A stretch of DNA of 64,000 nt from a bacterium (GCA_963674695.2 CAXXGI010000001.1:768001-832000), one strand, 5' to 3'. Shown: positions 43,195 through 51,415, counted from the stretch's first letter. Notes: generated by a model from the sequence alone, not told the origin. Numbers and translations are program-made.

Positions 43195-43280
43195 ATGGGG
43201 TCTGTGCGTACCAGATGCGACATGGGGCGTCAATCGCGCGACTTGCTAACACCTCGAAAAACAGCTACTATCGGAAAACC

Positions 43281-44363
43281 ATGCACATCCGACACCTTTT
43301 GATCCTCGCCCTCTGCATCACCTTCCTTTCGGGATGCTACAATCCTTTCAGCAACTTCCTTGACCTCTTCGACGGCGATGGCGACGGCAATGACGATCGC
43401 AATGCCTCTCCCGATCGCGTGATCGAAGCGACCGATCAGTTCGCGCTCGCCATCGGCGGCGTGGCCTCCGGGCGGGATGAGCTGGTCATCTATAATGATG
43501 CCGGAGACATCCGCAGCTTCGATGGCCAGACGCTCGTCTGTACCGCCGAGGACAACATCGTCCATATCGGAACGCGCCCGGGGTATACAACCGCGGCCGA
43601 AGGCAGTGGCGTCCTGCTCACCGCGATCGAGCCGGGGGTGACCGCCGTGCACTGCACCGTGGATGACGCCGCGCTGTCGGCCGTCTACGAGATCACCATT
43701 CCACCGCAGTCGCTCATCCAGATCCTGGTCGCCGAAGGGGCACTGCCGATCGCCGAGGAGGCCGAACTCGACGAGGAATACGAAGACGAGGATGTCGTCA
43801 TGCTCGATAGCGTCAGCCCCACGGCCAGCGCCCTGGGCGCGGTCATCCGCAACCGGATCGATCGCATCAACATGAACGACGACCCGGGACTCTTCAATGC
43901 GGACGAGGAGGACTACGACGCCGACGCACCCGCCTCCTATTATGATGCGGTGATTTATGCCGAGGACCAGTTCGAGCCGACCGATCGCGAGAACGCTGCG
44001 TATGAGATCTTCTCCGATGCGCAGGATCGTAACTTCCTGGAAGACGACTGGCGCATCGCCTACGACCAGGCCGTGATCACCGCCGCCGGCATCTTCAACC
44101 GCGACATCGCCGACCCCACGACCGGGGCATTCGGCTTTCGCTCACCGACAGAAGGCGAATGGAGTGTCATTCAGGAGGGACTCTGGACGCACACGCTCGA
44201 GACCCCCGACGGCGCGGGATTCTCCGATGCCAGCTTCCCGTCGCTCGCCCCGATCCAGCTCCTCATTCTGCCGGACGCCTACACCTACGAGGACGGCCGC
44301 CCCGCCTTCGTCTATGCCCGGAAGCGCACGAGCTCCGACTTCGCCGTGACCAATCAGCCGTAA
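43281..44363 (+). CDS. Acidic lipoprotein with Ig-like region and SleB/Hydrolase_2-like cell-wall hydrolase domain
   Basis: Lipobox LSGC; LIQILVAEG...ALGAVIRNRI...AVIYAEDQFEP...DPTTGAFGF parallels SleB motifs. Confidence 0.7.
   Translation: MHIRHLLILALCITFLSGCYNPFSNFLDLFDGDGDGNDDRNASPDRVIEATDQFALAIGGVASGRDELVIYNDAGDIRSFDGQTLVCTAEDNIVHIGTRPGYTTAAEGSGVLLTAIEPGVTAVHCTVDDAALSAVYEITIPPQSLIQILVAEGALPIAEEAELDEEYEDEDVVMLDSVSPTASALGAVIRNRIDRINMNDDPGLFNADEEDYDADAPASYYDAVIYAEDQFEPTDRENAAYEIFSDAQDRNFLEDDWRIAYDQAVITAAGIFNRDIADPTTGAFGFRSPTEGEWSVIQEGLWTHTLETPDGAGFSDASFPSLAPIQLLILPDAYTYEDGRPAFVYARKRTSSDFAVTNQP
44326..44363 (+). repeat. att-like direct repeat copy 1 (3' end of the lipoprotein gene)
   Basis: gcacgagctccgacttcgccgtgaccaatcagccgtaa encoding TSSDFAVTNQP*. 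Confidence 0.9.
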
Positions 44364-44446
44364 GCACCCATTTGACCGACGAGATAGCTCATCGTTGACT
44401 CATTCGAAACAAAGAAGATGGGGAATTGATACTTCTTCGACACAAC

Positions 44447-45001
44447 TTATCCGCGCATTTCTCGAACAAGCTCTGCAAAAACCTGGATACCATTTCGGTC
44501 AAGCGCCGCATCGAATTGTTCGAGCCATGAGACGATGAAGGGTTCATTGAAGGCGGGGTTTTTGAGCAACATCGACTTCACATCTTCGAGATCACGCGGA
44601 CGACCGGCAACGATCTTGTGGATGATCACATCCTCGAGCGAGGCATACCGAACTGTAACGCCGTCGATATCCACTTCGCGAGCACGTTGAATCGCATCGC
44701 GTTCATAGGGGGAAAAGGAGAAAACGAGATCCACACGAATGCCGCTGATGTCATCGCGCAGGGGAAAGACCATCGTGCGCCGGACAAACGATTCGTCATC
44801 CTTGAGCGCCGTCAACCCGAGCCCCCCAATGGCATCCTTGACCTTCGCAAAATCTTCGACGCCGACGCCCAGCGTGACATCGATATCGCGCGTCAGGCGC
44901 GGTTCTCCATAGATGAGCACCGCCTGGCCGCCAATCACCATATAGGGAATCGAAGCCTGGTTGAAGGATTGCGCCAATTTTTTAAGCAGCTCTTGAAACA
45001 C
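44447..45001 (-). CDS. Nucleotidyltransferase (DUF6036/AbiEii-like), putative toxin
   Basis: YMVIGGQAV..YGEPRLTRDIDV, LEDVIIHKIVAGRPRDLEDV; GTG start overlapping the upstream small gene. Confidence 0.8.
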   Translation of the reverse strand: MFQELLKKLAQSFNQASIPYMVIGGQAVLIYGEPRLTRDIDVTLGVGVEDFAKVKDAIGGLGLTALKDDESFVRRTMVFPLRDDISGIRVDLVFSFSPYERDAIQRAREVDIDGVTVRYASLEDVIIHKIVAGRPRDLEDVKSMLLKNPAFNEPFIVSWLEQFDAALDRNGIQVFAELVREMRG

Positions 45002-45188
45002 GATTGACCGCCTTGGCGACGCGAATATCCACTTCGATTCCTTCGAGTGGATCTTTGGGAGGAAAAACACCGAGAGCGATGGCCTCGGCATGCATCGCAT
45101 CGAGCAAATTCAGTTTTTGCGCGATAGTGAGGTCATCGTGTCTAAGAAGTTCTCGTTCAAATGCATGCCATTCGGATCGATCGTTCAT
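44982..45188 (-). CDS. Small protein overlapping the nucleotidyltransferase gene, putative antitoxin
   Basis: 68 aa, 20-bp overlap with the downstream gene, typical TA layout. Confidence 0.65.
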   Translation of the reverse strand: MNDRSEWHAFERELLRHDDLTIAQKLNLLDAMHAEAIALGVFPPKDPLEGIEVDIRVAKAVNRVSRAA

Positions 45189-45257
45189 GCACCAATGCTA
45201 ACATAGGCCCACGCGACAAACAAGCGCAGACTTAGTCCACACTTCCATCTATACAGC

Positions 45258-45416
45258 GATGAGATACTTCTGCTCTTGCGCTATGATTCAAAAGAGATCT
45301 GGGAGGCACTCGATATATCGAAACAAGGCGCGATGAATCTCATCAATCCACTGCTCAAGGCCGGCATCATCGAACGCATCGGAACGAGGAAATCGGGGAA
45401 GTATATTTTGAAGTGA
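45258..45416 (+). pseudogene. Remnant winged-HTH C-terminus (Fic-like gene fragment)
   Basis: Reads EILLLLRYDSKEIWEALDISKQGAMNLINPLLKAGIIERIGTRKSGKYILK* with no credible start. Confidence 0.55.
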
Positions 45417-45428
45417 CCTCACGCCGCC

Positions 45429-45466
45429 GCACGAGTTCCGATTTTGCGGTGACCAATCAGCCGTAA
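45429..45466 (+). repeat. att-like direct repeat copy 2
   Basis: gcacgagttccgattttgcggtgaccaatcagccgtaa. Confidence 0.9.
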
Positions 45467-45498
45467 AAAAAACCGTGGCATCGGGATCGACGCCACGG
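45465..45498 (-). terminator. Intrinsic terminator for 45551-46507
   Basis: ccgtggc...gccacgg stem with an A8 tract (U-tract on the minus strand). Confidence 0.6.
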
Positions 45499-45550
45499 CT
45501 TCATCTCCTCTTGAAATCGATCAAGCCTCTTCCATGATCGCAATGAATTC

Positions 45551-46507
45551 CTAGTGCCAACCGTACTCGCTGTCGCGGGGCGCGGCGAGCAGGCCCGACT
45601 CGATCATCCGACGGGCGGGATCGGTGGAGACCACGCCCGGAAACGCGGCGGCATATCCGCGGAGGAGATCGAGGTGCGTGGCCGCACTGTGATCGATCGC
45701 CGCCAGCGCATCTTCGCGGTCGGTGGGCTGATGGAACTTTTGCATAACAGATGCCCGTTTTAAATTGAAATACGCAGATGCAAAAAATTGGCAACATCCC
45801 AGTACGGTGCCTATGTGACCCACAGCTTCGACTAAGATCTGTGCATTACGCCCCAAATATTCACTCAGACTAGACATCGCACCAAATAAAACAATTGCGC
45901 CAAAAGCGAACCATGCAGACTTTATCTGTGATATTTCCTTGCGCACCGCCGACAGCGCGCACAGGTTCGTATAGATGTTGCCCCCCAGCGCATGCGCGAG
46001 CGTCGCACCGGCCTCCGGCGTGATGATCTCGCAATCAACCGCACCCTTCAACGATGCACCCTGAAGGGCCGGATGGATGAGCATCGAATCTGCAAAGAGC
46101 CGATCGCCCGGTTGACTGCGCTCGCGCATCGTATCAGGGCTCGCCGGAAAGAGCGGAATGCCGAACCTGTGCCCATCGATGTATGTCGCCAACGCATCGA
46201 TCCTTTTGCTCAAGACGGGATTGAACTCCTCGATGAATGCGTCGCGGTTCTTCGCGCCCTGCTGGCAGAGCCCTCCATTGGAGGCAAATGCCAATTCCTG
46301 TTGAACGAGTTGCCGATTCACAGCAGCGACCGCTTCCGAAGGATCGGCATCGGCAAAAAGCCCTTGGGTTCCCTCCAGCAAGTTTCCCTCCGGACTTCTC
46401 TCGAGCAACGGCTCGGTATAGACGGGACCCTGCATCGCCGTCGCGATCTCCTGCCAGCCGAATGCCATTGGTGCTGCACCTGCGGTCATCGCATTCATGA
46501 ATGTCAT
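45551..46507 (-). CDS. Orphan membrane protein, cassette paralog A
   Basis: RBS gaggagg, start MTFMNAM; shares N- and C-terminal blocks with 46847-47797; AT-rich hydrophobic segment at about 45750-45940. Confidence 0.75.
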   Translation of the reverse strand: MTFMNAMTAGAAPMAFGWQEIATAMQGPVYTEPLLERSPEGNLLEGTQGLFADADPSEAVAAVNRQLVQQELAFASNGGLCQQGAKNRDAFIEEFNPVLSKRIDALATYIDGHRFGIPLFPASPDTMRERSQPGDRLFADSMLIHPALQGASLKGAVDCEIITPEAGATLAHALGGNIYTNLCALSAVRKEISQIKSAWFAFGAIVLFGAMSSLSEYLGRNAQILVEAVGHIGTVLGCCQFFASAYFNLKRASVMQKFHQPTDREDALAAIDHSAATHLDLLRGYAAAFPGVVSTDPARRMIESGLLAAPRDSEYGWH

Positions 46508-46554
46508 CGCATCCTCCTCGTCGTTAATCCCCGATAAAACTTCCTTTAGCCCAT

Positions 46555-46581
46555 ATATCGCACATGGCCAGGATTTGTTGC
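46555..46581 (-). promoter_or_regulatory. Sigma28-like promoter motif copy
   Basis: Minus strand GCAAC-N14-TGCGATAT. Confidence 0.55.
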
Positions 46582-46738
46582 GAGTTTTCCAAACAAGTAC
46601 GCCGGATAGAGTTGTCTCCGCATGAGGCTGGATTCCCCGCCTGCCTCGCGAACGCTCGGCGAACGGGCAAGAAGATTGAAGCTCTCCCGCCGGAGGCGGG
46701 CAGGCGGGAACGACAGCAGCACACTGGATTCCACCGCT

Positions 46739-46776
46739 GTACGAGTTCCGATTTTGCGGTGACCAATCAGCCGTGA
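46739..46776 (+). repeat. att-like direct repeat copy 3
   Basis: gtacgagttccgattttgcggtgaccaatcagccgtga; 34 bp identical to copy 2. Confidence 0.9.
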
Positions 46777-46846
46777 ACACCAAAAAAATCGGGGACAGCT
46801 CTCTTTTGAATCGAGAACCATCCCCACATGAAATATCCACTTGCGA

Positions 46847-47797
46847 TCAGGCCCCTTCCATCTCCACAGCGATGGGCGCTTTCTTCTTCGGCTCCAAATG
46901 CAAACGCAGGTTCGAGGCGAGCAGCCCCGACTCGATCATCCGAACGGCGGGATCGGTGGAGACCGCGCCCGGAAACGCATCGGCATATCCGCGCAGGAGG
47001 TCGAGGTGCATACCGGCGCTGTGATCGATGGCCGCGAGCGCTTCCTTGCGGCCAGTCGGCTGCTTGAAAGCGGACATGGATTGCTCGCGTTGAGCATGGT
47101 GCCCAACAACGCGAACCGCATTGAGCAGTGCATGGCCCCACAACACACCACCCAGCAGGCGCGCTCCCGCTCGAAGAAAGAGCGTTCCAGCCGTTCCCCC
47201 TATGGCCATATCTCGAAAACGCACCTGTTGCCCAACAACGGTCCTCAAATCCCCCAACGCACGAAGGTTCATGGAGATATTGCCTCCCACTGCATACGCA
47301 AACGTCGCCACCGCTTCCAGTGAAAACAAATTGCGGTCAGCGGAGTGCTTCAGCATCGCCCCCGTCAAGGATGGCGCGATGAGATGATCATCGAGGCCAT
47401 CGCTCGGCGCACCGGACAACCTGAGCCGTCGCGGAAAGAGCGGAAGACCGATTGTGTGCGCATTGAGTTGCTGTGCAAGCCCCTCCATACGTCGGTTCAT
47501 TTCGGGATTGAGTTTTTGTACAAAACCGGAGATCTCCGATGCATCCGGCTCTTGGGAAATGCCACCCGACGCCGTCTGCACGAGATCATATCTTTCAAGC
47601 TTTTCATTGAGCACCGTTATCGCCCGCTGATCCTGCGTGTCGTCAAGAAGGGCGTTCGCCCGCTTCGTCAGTTCGCCGACAGGGCTATACCACGGATCCA
47701 AGGGCTCGACATAGACACCGTTCTTCATCGCACCGGCAATCTCCTGCCAGCCCATGACTGGCATCGACACTGTCGTTATCGAAGTCATGAATGTCAT
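46847..47797 (-). CDS. Orphan membrane protein, cassette paralog B
   Basis: Identical ggaggatgcgatgacattcatga start context; GWQEIA, VYVEPL, GLPLFP, GGNI, ALAAIDHSA..HLDLLRGYA.AFPG.VSTDPA.RMIESGLLA shared with paralog A. Confidence 0.75.
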   Translation of the reverse strand: MTFMTSITTVSMPVMGWQEIAGAMKNGVYVEPLDPWYSPVGELTKRANALLDDTQDQRAITVLNEKLERYDLVQTASGGISQEPDASEISGFVQKLNPEMNRRMEGLAQQLNAHTIGLPLFPRRLRLSGAPSDGLDDHLIAPSLTGAMLKHSADRNLFSLEAVATFAYAVGGNISMNLRALGDLRTVVGQQVRFRDMAIGGTAGTLFLRAGARLLGGVLWGHALLNAVRVVGHHAQREQSMSAFKQPTGRKEALAAIDHSAGMHLDLLRGYADAFPGAVSTDPAVRMIESGLLASNLRLHLEPKKKAPIAVEMEGA

Positions 47798-47861
47798 CGC
47801 ATCCTCCTTGGCATTATGTTCAACCACCCCACGGATCGAACGGTTGGGACATGCGCCCTTT

Positions 47862-47887
47862 CTATCGCACAACACGAAAACAAGTTG
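47862..47887 (-). promoter_or_regulatory. Sigma28-like promoter motif copy
   Basis: Minus strand CAAC-N14-TGCGATAG. Confidence 0.55.
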
Positions 47888-47971
47888 TGCATTTTTTTGC
47901 ACAAAGGCGAAAAAACCGTTTTCTTTTGAGAACGGGAATAATGGCCGTTTACAGAGAGAACCGATGGAGAT

Positions 47972-48823
47972 CTATCGCCGTTCGGCGGGTTCGTCGGCGG
48001 GCTGGGCGGGCGGCAGGCGCAGATCTTCGCCGACCGCATCGATGATCTCGACCGGCAGCGGAAGCTCGGCCTTGCGCACGAAGCCCTCGAAGAGGGCGTT
48101 GTCGCAGATGACGTTGACCAGCCGCGGATTGCCCTTCGACAGAAGGTGAATGCGCGTGAGCGCGTCGATGGCGAAGACCTGTTTTGCGGAGCCGGCGTGG
48201 AAGAGGCGAAAGCGAACGTAGTCGATGAGGACATTCTCGGGGAGATTCTTGAGCTCACAGCGCACCGCGATGCGCTGTTTGAGCGCGGGCTCGCTGAGCA
48301 GACATTCATCAAGCGGCAGCATGCCGAACATGATGAAGGTAATGAGTTTGGCATCCGACAGTTCGAGGTTTAAGAGCCCGCGCAACTCTTCGAGCACCTC
48401 TTGTTTGCGCAGCATGTGCGCCTCATCGATGATGATGACGGCGCGGCGGCCATCATCGGCGATCACATTGAGGCGATCGTAGAGGCGGGTGAGCACATCG
48501 ACCTTGCTCCCCTCCAGATCCTCCACGCCGAGCTGCCCCGCGATGCGGCGAATGAGCCAGTCGCCGGTGACATCGCCGTGGAGCACCACGAGCATGGCGC
48601 ATTCAAACTGATCATCGGGGAGCGACTCAAACAGACGGCGCGCGAGAAGCGTCTTTCCGGTCCCCACGTCCCCCACGCAGACGCCCAGGCCCTTCATCCC
48701 ATCGGCCACGCGCTTGAGGCGGAGGAAGGCCTGGTCGTGCTGATCGTTGTGATAATAGAACTTCGTCAGCGGCATCACCGCGAAGGGCTCTTCCTTGAGA
48801 TCGTAATAGGCCAGATGGTCCAT
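47972..48823 (-). CDS. ExeA/GspA-family AAA ATPase
   Basis: YYDLKEEPF, GDVGTGKT, IIIDEAH, LKQRI, SKGNPRLVNVICDNAL. Confidence 0.9.
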   Translation of the reverse strand: MDHLAYYDLKEEPFAVMPLTKFYYHNDQHDQAFLRLKRVADGMKGLGVCVGDVGTGKTLLARRLFESLPDDQFECAMLVVLHGDVTGDWLIRRIAGQLGVEDLEGSKVDVLTRLYDRLNVIADDGRRAVIIIDEAHMLRKQEVLEELRGLLNLELSDAKLITFIMFGMLPLDECLLSEPALKQRIAVRCELKNLPENVLIDYVRFRLFHAGSAKQVFAIDALTRIHLLSKGNPRLVNVICDNALFEGFVRKAELPLPVEIIDAVGEDLRLPPAQPADEPAERR

Positions 48824-51041: not shown

Positions 51042-51104
51042 AAGTCTTTTGTGATTACACAAAAGGATCGGCTGAGGCAAGCTGGAACTCGAAAGGTATG
51101 ACCC

Positions 51105-51188
51105 AGTCACGAGTTACGAGTTACGAGTCACGAGTCACGAGTCACGAGTCACGAGTTACGAGTTACGAGTTACGAGTTACGAGTTACG
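51105..51188. repeat. Heptamer tandem repeat (AGTYACG)12
   Basis: 12 units of agtcacg/agttacg just downstream of the HTH gene. Confidence 0.92.
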
Positions 51189-51196
51189 GCTCTTTG

Positions 51197-51415
51197 TCAC
51201 CCCTCTGGAAAGAGACGATTCTTGTCGGTGAGCTTGAGGCCCAAGGCAAGCAGGATCTTGCGCTTGGTGTCCATGCGACAGGGCATACCGTTTTCGACGC
51301 GATCGATGGTGAGGGCAGAGAGCCCAGCCTTGCGAGCGAGTTCAGCCTTGCTCATGAGGAGATCTTCGCGACACTTGCGAACGTTGTTGGAGATGATTAT
51401 CGTTTCCTTCGTCAT
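51197..51415 (-). CDS. Small XRE-type HTH regulator (type commonly linked to type IV pilus genes in deltaproteobacteria)
   Basis: NNVRKCRE.LLMSKAELARKAGLS.LTIDRVE.GM.CRMDTKRKI. Confidence 0.88.
   Translation of the reverse strand: MTKETIIISNNVRKCREDLLMSKAELARKAGLSALTIDRVENGMPCRMDTKRKILLALGLKLTDKNRLFPEG

Follow-up and report, generated by a model that had tools for sequence, protein, structure and literature searches.

Direct repeats of a lipoprotein gene end bound small units in a 3.6 kb bacterial interval that may have grown by serial recombination

The locus described here lies in a bacterial genome of 3.03 Mb assembled in three contigs, within a stretch of 64,000 nucleotides (G000:C1:768001-832000) that was analysed as a whole and is called the window below; positions given without a contig name are counted from its first letter. 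In the window, the gene of a conserved lipoprotein (lipo) and a gene for an ExeA-like AAA ATPase (exeA) are separated by an interval in which the end of lipo recurs twice. The layout is lipo with copy 1 of the repeat, a nucleotidyltransferase module followed by the remnant of a Fic-type gene, copy 2, parA, copy 3, parB and exeA (Table 1). The G+C content is 0.50-0.57 over 44364-47970 against 0.60-0.64 outside, and third codon positions are less G+C-rich in the cargo genes (0.42-0.65) than in lipo and exeA (0.81). The terminators listed in Table 1 come from folding, the scan with consensus promoters and terminators having overlooked real hairpins. As argued below, the interval may have been built by recombination repeated at the end of lipo.

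The last 39 bases of lipo (RTSSDFAVTNQP and the stop codon) recur downstream as two direct repeats. In a 40-base register, copy 2 is identical to copy 1 at 35 positions and copy 3 at 32. An exact 34-mer (45431-45464 and 46741-46774) is common to copies 2 and 3, which agree at 43 of 48 bases when the flanks are included. Within this 34-mer, copy 1 differs from the two others at four bases (AGC/AGT, GAC/GAT, TTC/TTT and GCC/GCG), all at third codon positions and all synonymous. With three in-frame copies, the 34-bp identity of copies 2 and 3 and these four synonymous differences, the gene-end repeats proposed by the initial annotation of the stretch are confirmed as real. By our arithmetic, the chance that all four differences are synonymous is about 1 in 81 if positions are random, and 15 in 715 if only C sites mutate. 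Since all four are synonymous, copies 2 and 3 carry the history of a coding sequence. Copy 3 has in addition TGT in the place of CGC and TGA in the place of TAA, and its left edge shows three transitions relative to copy 2. The left flank CxCCGC is common to copies 2 and 3 and is not lipo-like; both therefore originate in common as a junction, not as two independent truncations.

The codons of copy 1 are those preferred within lipo, where their share of each codon pair is 0.78 for AGC, 0.61 for GAC, 0.94 for TTC (16 TTC for 1 TTT) and 0.72 for GCC, and copies 2 and 3 have codons that the cargo genes favour. The latter codons are also common genome-wide, so that codon style decides little; it gives a hint that copy 1 may be native and that copies 2 and 3 may have been imported with the cargo. 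When the whole genome was searched with a degenerate 36-mer (up to 3 mismatches), only the three sites were detected, and the reversed control gave none. Folding of the 44-base copies gives values no better than those of shuffled sequences (z +0.9 and -1.5), in agreement with the earlier statement that the repeats are devoid of attC-type palindromes. Two other origins or roles of the copies were considered and rejected. A transposon target-site duplication of 39-46 bases starts identical and could not gain synonymous-only differences. As for an antisense role, the copies are placed past strong terminators, and mismatches, not wobble pairs, would result from the four differences.

Table 1. Features of the lipo-exeA locus. 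Positions are those of the window; aa, amino acids; ORF, open reading frame; REP, repetitive extragenic palindrome; MITE, miniature inverted-repeat transposable element.
Feature	Position	Strand	Basis or detail
lipo, conserved lipoprotein gene	43278..44363	+	ORF call, signal peptide, orthologs
Repeat copy 1	44325..44363	+	last 13 lipo codons including stop
Nucleotidyltransferase module	44447..45188	-	185-aa gene 44447-45004, 68-aa partner 44982-45188
Fic-type 3' remnant	45207..45416	+	C-terminal winged-helix matches
Repeat copy 2	45428-45466 (45422..45467 with flanks)	+	TAA stop, frame kept
parA terminator	45469..45502	-	hairpin and eight U
parA	45551..46507	-	318-aa orphan
Motif GTGCGATA upstream of parA	46556..46563	-	three-way alignment
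REP/MITE-like partial copy	46620..46718		similarity to dispersed copies
Repeat copy 3	46738-46776 (46732..46777 with flanks)	+	TGA stop, frame kept
parB terminator	46790..46826	-	hairpin and seven U
parB	46847..47797	-	316 aa; motif at 47863-47870; palindrome 47885-47904
exeA-like AAA ATPase	47972..48823	-	Pfam AAA_22

The assembly of the array was compared with contigs (k=31) from three public sequencing runs, which represent two samples of one study; rare forms are invisible in such contigs, and the runs are possibly the source of the assembly itself, so they are no independent support. These contigs break only at the 34-mer, as a result of their k=31 limit. The depth of the 34-mer is about twice that of its flanks (in one run 20, with flanks at 9.8, 10.9 and 12.9; in another 10.1, with flanks at 6.3, 6.4 and 7.5) and the depth of the parA unit equals the flank depth. 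The three-copy array is thus not obviously an assembly artefact. As a separate observation, one contig of run X3 (the second sample) matches only 44252-44593, namely the last 110 bases of lipo, copy 1 and the nucleotidyltransferase gene in its 3' part, and is unlike the window on both sides (over 151 and 26 letters). In this run, 34 of the 45 matching pieces have unlike ends, and strain variation or chimeric contigs could account for the contig in question.

The contents of the units agree with the earlier description, and the repeats bound discrete units. Two of them hold one gene each, parA and parB, whose products are 44% identical. A third paralog, parC, is found on another contig (G000:C2:744430-745410, positions 1411-2391 of the fetched locus L006), and the members of this family are about 320 aa long and 40-44% identical. 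In parA, parB and parC the motif GTGCGATA lies upstream of a ribosome-binding site and start region that are identical in all three, and it may be a promoter element. parC possesses its own terminator as well as the motif, and no gene-end repeat lies beside it. The parA terminator (-34.4 kcal/mol, z -3.7) has a U run that leads straight into copy 2, and the parB terminator (-32.2 kcal/mol, z -5.0) lies 7 bases from copy 3. A search of Rfam gave only two sub-threshold chance matches, both over the parA terminator. Upstream of parB, a perfect palindrome TTGTGCA-N6-TGCACAA is present.

Between parA and parB the proportion of synonymous differences (pS) is 0.60, the synonymous divergence (dS) is about 1.2 and the ratio of nonsynonymous to synonymous divergence (dN/dS) is about 0.44, the last value indicating that the par genes are real. 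The two units align as DNA from the promoter to the conserved C-terminal block, and their tails and terminators are unalignable; beyond these tails, the 46-base repeat matches again at 43 of 48 bases with its perfect 34-base core. The core is therefore perfect although the paralogs are separated by a dS of about 1.2 and their terminators no longer align, so that a plain tandem duplication followed by decay fails. The initial annotation had named such a single duplication as the explanation that would undo its proposal; as a full explanation it does not survive, the repeat being conserved between unalignable flanks and the par synonymous sites being saturated.

The par proteins have no match in Pfam, NCBIfam, PADLOC or PHROGs, and their best match among Protein Data Bank (PDB) sequences (E 0.33) is not credible. 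Among 5.8 billion clusters, a word-indexed search found no members besides the three paralogs of this genome. Their central segment is moderately hydrophobic; hydropathy peaks at about 1.5 over 19 residues, a value not clearly membrane-spanning. The idea that a par protein is itself a recombinase found no support, and no repeat adjoins parC. Between the parA promoter and copy 3, the sequence 46620-46718 has inverted ends (TGTCATTCCCGC...GCGGGGATGACA) and resembles seven other copies in the genome (E at most 1.1e-5, 83-94% identical, e.g. G000:C1:455714, C3:224192 and C1:9022). Words related to this REP/MITE-like element flank many genes genome-wide. A different dispersed repeat lies just downstream of parC, around which no repeat of note was seen.

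The first unit (44364-45421) is of another composition. Its 185-aa nucleotidyltransferase matches the Pfam families DUF6036 (44 bits) and AbiEii (33 bits), both over their cut-offs, whereas the AbiEii matches in PADLOC are weak (17 bits). The gene is overlapped by that of the 68-aa partner, which has no family match. About 5000 homologs of the nucleotidyltransferase were found, the source names of the 120 listed spanning several phyla, and the partner is directly upstream in 77 of 80 fetched nucleotidyltransferase loci, which represent more than 15 phyla. On these sequence comparisons the pair is a self-contained and widely scattered module that looks toxin-antitoxin-like. In the AbiE type IV toxin-antitoxin systems, an AbiEii nucleotidyltransferase is paired with the antitoxin AbiEi, which consists of a winged helix and a C-terminal domain; the partner here has 68 aa. 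A hairpin between the nucleotidyltransferase stop codon and copy 1 is weak (z -0.18) and has no statistical support.

The second part of the unit is a 69-codon open frame, with TTG at 45276 as its first start codon, which encodes only a C-terminal winged helix; 11 bases separate its end from copy 2 (45428). Its product resembles PADLOC PDC-S72 (residues 331-374 of 377) and SoFic (308-348 of 361) at their extreme C-termini, and shares 44% identity over 39 aa with the C-terminal end of an intact Fic-motif protein of the same genome (G000:C2:842773-843684); the score of the frame with Pfam MarR_2 is below the cut-off. Since only the extreme ends of longer proteins are matched, the frame is what is left of a larger gene. 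None of the 80 nucleotidyltransferase loci contains it. A scattered nucleotidyltransferase module next to a truncated Fic-type gene is what is expected of decayed imported DNA. Elsewhere in the genome, an exact 33-base direct repeat (G000:C2:843691-843723 and 848506-848538) surrounds a 4.8 kb islet devoid of a recombinase gene, in which an ORF resembling the major facilitator superfamily, a 432-aa ORF and an AAA ATPase are found. The first copy of this repeat lies 7 bases past the stop codon of the intact Fic-motif gene, the best in-genome match to the remnant.

The lipo ORF is intact and its product has an ortholog-like C-terminus. Translation likely starts at ATG 43278, followed by a signal peptide with the lipobox LSGC; another ATG, upstream at 43215, is open too. 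Of the 40 other genomes searched, none of them of the same genus, 27 have an ortholog, including 12 of the 12 genomes of the same family; the best ortholog is only 58% identical. The motif xRxRxxxxFAVxNxP at the C-terminus is common to lipo and its orthologs. Two ortholog matches contain in-frame stop codons: two TGA in L008 (G008:C35:8347-9465) and one TAA in L012 (G001:C12:105163-106251). The label "SleB-like" formerly given to the lipoprotein found no support: its sequence matches no Pfam family (E up to 5), no NCBIfam model and no PDB sequence, and no SleB-type chain appeared in the profile search of the PDB sequences.

The region downstream of lipo was compared in 19 relative loci, all from other genera, no congeneric genome or metagenome contig having been found and the lipoprotein query having given nothing in the metagenome_contigs collection. 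In 9 of the 19 loci exeA is convergent on lipo and lies a few to about 130 bases from it, which identifies the 3.6 kb present here as an insertion. Unrelated inserts of 0.6-3.8 kb separate the two genes in six others, for instance an FG-GAP-like lipoprotein gene (two genomes) or a deoxyhypusine-synthase-like gene (one genome). exeA is not within 8-12 kb in three loci, and the last one meets a contig end. The lipo-exeA junction is a spot that often took up genes. Cassette turnover, for which the initial annotation had suggested such a comparison, was not seen in these relatives, and a repeat of the gene's own end was not recovered in the nine loci scanned.

No integrase had been noticed in the window, and the profile searches are in agreement with this, no match to PF00589 or PF00239 being present. 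In the genome as a whole, five tyrosine recombinases (XerC/D-like genes and three paralogous integrases) and four serine recombinases (three small ones near the integrases and a large one) were identified, none of them in the window. The nearest tyrosine recombinase is located about 64 kb away, beside tRNA genes. No att-like copy was found near any recombinase gene of the genome, and the ORFs of the units contain no integrase or transfer gene according to Pfam, NCBIfam, PADLOC and PHROGs. The three paralogous integrases (C1:101965, 336942 and 747784) each have a small serine recombinase a few kb away, and two of them have an adjoining tRNA gene in the fetched loci. Direct repeats of tRNA ends of 26 and 32 bases, 11.3 and 15.6 kb apart, bound the islands C1:101215/112502 and C1:336722/352330, which are classical islands unrelated to the lipoprotein site.

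Taken together, these data are compatible with an interval made of small recombinase-less islets added in series by recombination at the end of lipo, a reading which we hold with evenly balanced confidence. In each event, incoming DNA carrying a copy of the lipo end would recombine with the last 40 bases or so of the chromosomal gene; the gene would be restored and one gene-end copy would stay between the new islet and the older material. The carried copies would have evolved as gene ends, under coding constraint, in a different and unsampled lineage. parB would have been resident, parA would have followed, and the nucleotidyltransferase/Fic block would have come last and since been rearranged. 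As no copy is found distal to parB, this gene may simply be the resident neighbour. The enzyme may have been a trans-acting site-specific recombinase, now absent, or a RecA-type system acting by single crossover of circular DNA; the repeat having no dyad or folded structure, a single crossover on 34-46 bases is no worse a candidate than a site-specific enzyme since lost. By now the array is probably static. Serial integration at a site embedded in a coding sequence, as proposed initially, is therefore retained as the best reading, and the part of the proposal which saw in the units the mobile cassettes of a working integron-like system finds no support.

A number of findings weigh against serial addition at the lipo end. 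No copy of the repeat was found distal to parB, where the local alignment of the repeat with 47800-47990 is no better than with shuffles, and neither folding nor inspection by eye revealed a dyad, a dif-like core or an attC-like structure in the repeat. No recombinase linked to the repeats was found within the window, and outside the three copies the genome matches the 19-base core of the repeat at a single other locus, with 3 mismatches. Descent of the units from an integrative element was not recovered: the only remnant is the Fic-type gene end, and the degenerate repeat pattern had no match in the genome_contigs, metagenome_contigs and viral_contigs collections, scans of which may omit records of the genome itself or of very near ones. 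No outside donor of par genes was found either, a profile search of 1.84 billion representatives giving only the three paralogs and no par member turning up when the order's 21 other genomes were searched in six frames. In addition, a repeat of the gene's own end is seen in none of the nine relatives with an insert or a missing exeA (the nine abutting loci and the one at a contig end were not scanned), and the contigs of the three runs, which miss rare forms, show no alternative junction, variant or depth difference. parA and parB share their position and orientation relative to a repeat copy, as an in-place duplication would also give. Against a version with cassettes speaks the first unit, which is a mosaic of a nucleotidyltransferase operon and a truncated Fic-type gene and not a clean cassette.

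Two other histories account for part of these observations. The units may have arisen in place, by an old tandem duplication of a segment comprising gene end, terminator, par gene and promoter, with a later insertion of the nucleotidyltransferase/Fic block accompanied by a further duplication of the gene end, the copies being kept alike by conversion or by a function at the sequence level. The tandem arrangement of parA and parB in the same orientation with a repeat copy just past each terminator, the confinement of the family to this genome with its third member on another contig, the junction flank common to copies 2 and 3 and the failure to find a distal copy or a recombinase are all in favour of it. 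So is the C-terminal block, in which parA and parB differ synonymously at 9 of 41 codons for identical residues, against 12 of 33 and 11 of 35 in the comparisons with parC. Such a duplication would nevertheless be old, given the dS of about 1.2 and the unalignable tails and terminators, and the 34-base core is perfect in two non-coding copies for which even the lowest local rate (pS about 0.14) predicts about 5 changes by our arithmetic. Conversion over a patch of 34-46 bases is inefficient without flanking homology, conversion from the gene copy is excluded by the four differences of copy 1, and no function is evident for unstructured copies lying beyond strong terminators. We consider this origin unlikely.

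Displacement by homology-facilitated illegitimate recombination is the other possibility, and it appears rather doubtful. Fragments from related strains, containing lipo and another downstream gene, would have been anchored in lipo and joined at their far ends at a CGC-repeat microhomology about 40 bases before the stop codon, stranding the resident gene end. This mechanism, proposed for orphan arrays at type VI secretion system (T6SS) effector and rearrangement hotspot (Rhs) loci in PMC5361080, explains the coding-type history of the stranded copies, the agreement of the codon style of copy 1 with the rest of lipo and the position of parA behind a gene end exactly like that of parB; the left edges of copies 2 and 3 indeed lie in a CGC/CCGC-rich stretch. 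It demands, however, two independent illegitimate joins within about 14 bases and with similar flanks, for which we calculate a chance of about 2-3% for random points in a 1.1 kb gene. Moreover, the history would require that copies 2 and 3 were resident alleles one after the other; their identity over 34 bases, set beside the four differences of copy 1, speaks against it. We give still less credit to the gene end as a working capture site, from which single transcription units, tagged with the site and each having a promoter and terminator, would excise as circles and at which they would dock via host recombination functions or an unlinked recombinase; this seems very improbable. We thus keep the serial addition of recombinase-less islets as the preferred history.

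Serial addition at the lipo end can be placed among several known systems. Elements related to ICESt1 and ICESt3 at fda of Streptococcus thermophilus, and integrative and mobilizable elements at rpsI, are examples of integration at gene ends. The tandem accretion of integrative elements and of cis-mobilizable elements (CIMEs) at gene 3' ends is outlined in PMC5704250. As in CIME accretion, direct repeats of a gene end bound the units here (except that no copy is distal to parB), the target gene is intact, the site is empty in relatives (9 of 19 loci abut), the units contain no integration or transfer genes, and they are stacked in tandem with chimeric middle sites. The present units differ by their size of 1.1-1.3 kb with one transcription unit each, by a last unit that has no distal site, by the absence of any integrase, relaxase or excisionase trace, no cognate integrase having been found in the genome, and by two units that carry paralogs of one orphan family.

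A comparable exchange of gene ends is known for e14 in the 3' end of icd of E. coli K-12, in which, according to PMC13626634, the icdC pseudogene is a stranded C-terminus and the exchange is mostly synonymous. In that description, the element brings a surrogate gene end and the working and stranded ends differ mostly at synonymous positions, as they do here. Unlike the present units, e14 is a prophage of 15 kb that has an integrase of its own and is excised upon induction by the SOS response; here no integrase is present and three copies are found instead of two, and codon style weakly suggests that the working end is native and not element-borne.

In the orphan arrays of Rhs, CDI (contact-dependent growth inhibition) and T6SS loci, as they are presented in PMC5361080, additions also push older material downstream, pieces of the upstream gene remain and no integrase is involved. 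There, the repeated piece precedes a variable toxin domain and an immunity gene on the same strand; here, the stop codon lies within the repeat, nothing is fused to the protein, and the convergent cargo has promoters and terminators of its own. As the stop codon is part of the repeat, the locus is not a C-terminal displacement array.

Integron arrays and clusters of attC sites lacking integrases (CALINs) are likewise made of small, mostly promoterless units that are read from a common promoter, each with an attC site, an imperfect palindrome which folds in single-stranded form; an integron possesses intI and attI beside the array, and its units are docked at a fixed site. The interval described here resembles them in its ordered small units, each tied to one site-like repeat at a fixed site. 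It differs in that there is no intI and no attC fold, the site is a coding end, and the units have their own upstream motif and terminators. With no intI, no attC structure, and units with their own promoters and terminators, the locus is not an integron.

The locus is a fairly ordinary case of a known type of scar, that of DNA recombining repeatedly into a gene end, here in miniature. Unusual are the small size of the units, a core without any mismatch between the two stranded copies and a cargo of orphan paralogs. If serial addition is the true history, the last codons of a conserved gene have served as a landing pad, and the scars persist as tiny one-gene units devoid of a recombinase. Since the repeats are conserved beyond their surroundings and the anciently diverged paralogs each have one, either their juxtaposition is recent or the site is under selection. 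Units that came and went in the population would offer a simple model for integrase-independent cassette exchange, and a true capture site would amount to an integron-like cassette system that uses coding sequence, in a lineage still uncultured. For annotation, the locus adds a lipo-exeA hotspot, a toxin-antitoxin-like nucleotidyltransferase module, the remnant of a Fic gene and a family of orphan genes.

On the left, lipo is preceded by hisS and aspS; on the right, the ExeA-like AAA ATPase is followed by TPR proteins. Between parB and exeA, a terminator-like hairpin with six U (about 47905-47935) is weak (z -1.1). Outside the window, an 82-base direct repeat (G000:C1:705997-706078 and 724232-724313, 94% identical) surrounds an 18.2 kb block with ORFs of 1179, 1184, 876 and 685 aa, which resembles a defence island, its likeness to a bacteriophage exclusion (BREX) system being an impression only. 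Further right in the window, a tandem heptamer-type repeat (SRVTSYE repeats in one frame) occupies 51098-51200, in the A+T-rich spacer before a prepilin-peptidase-like gene.

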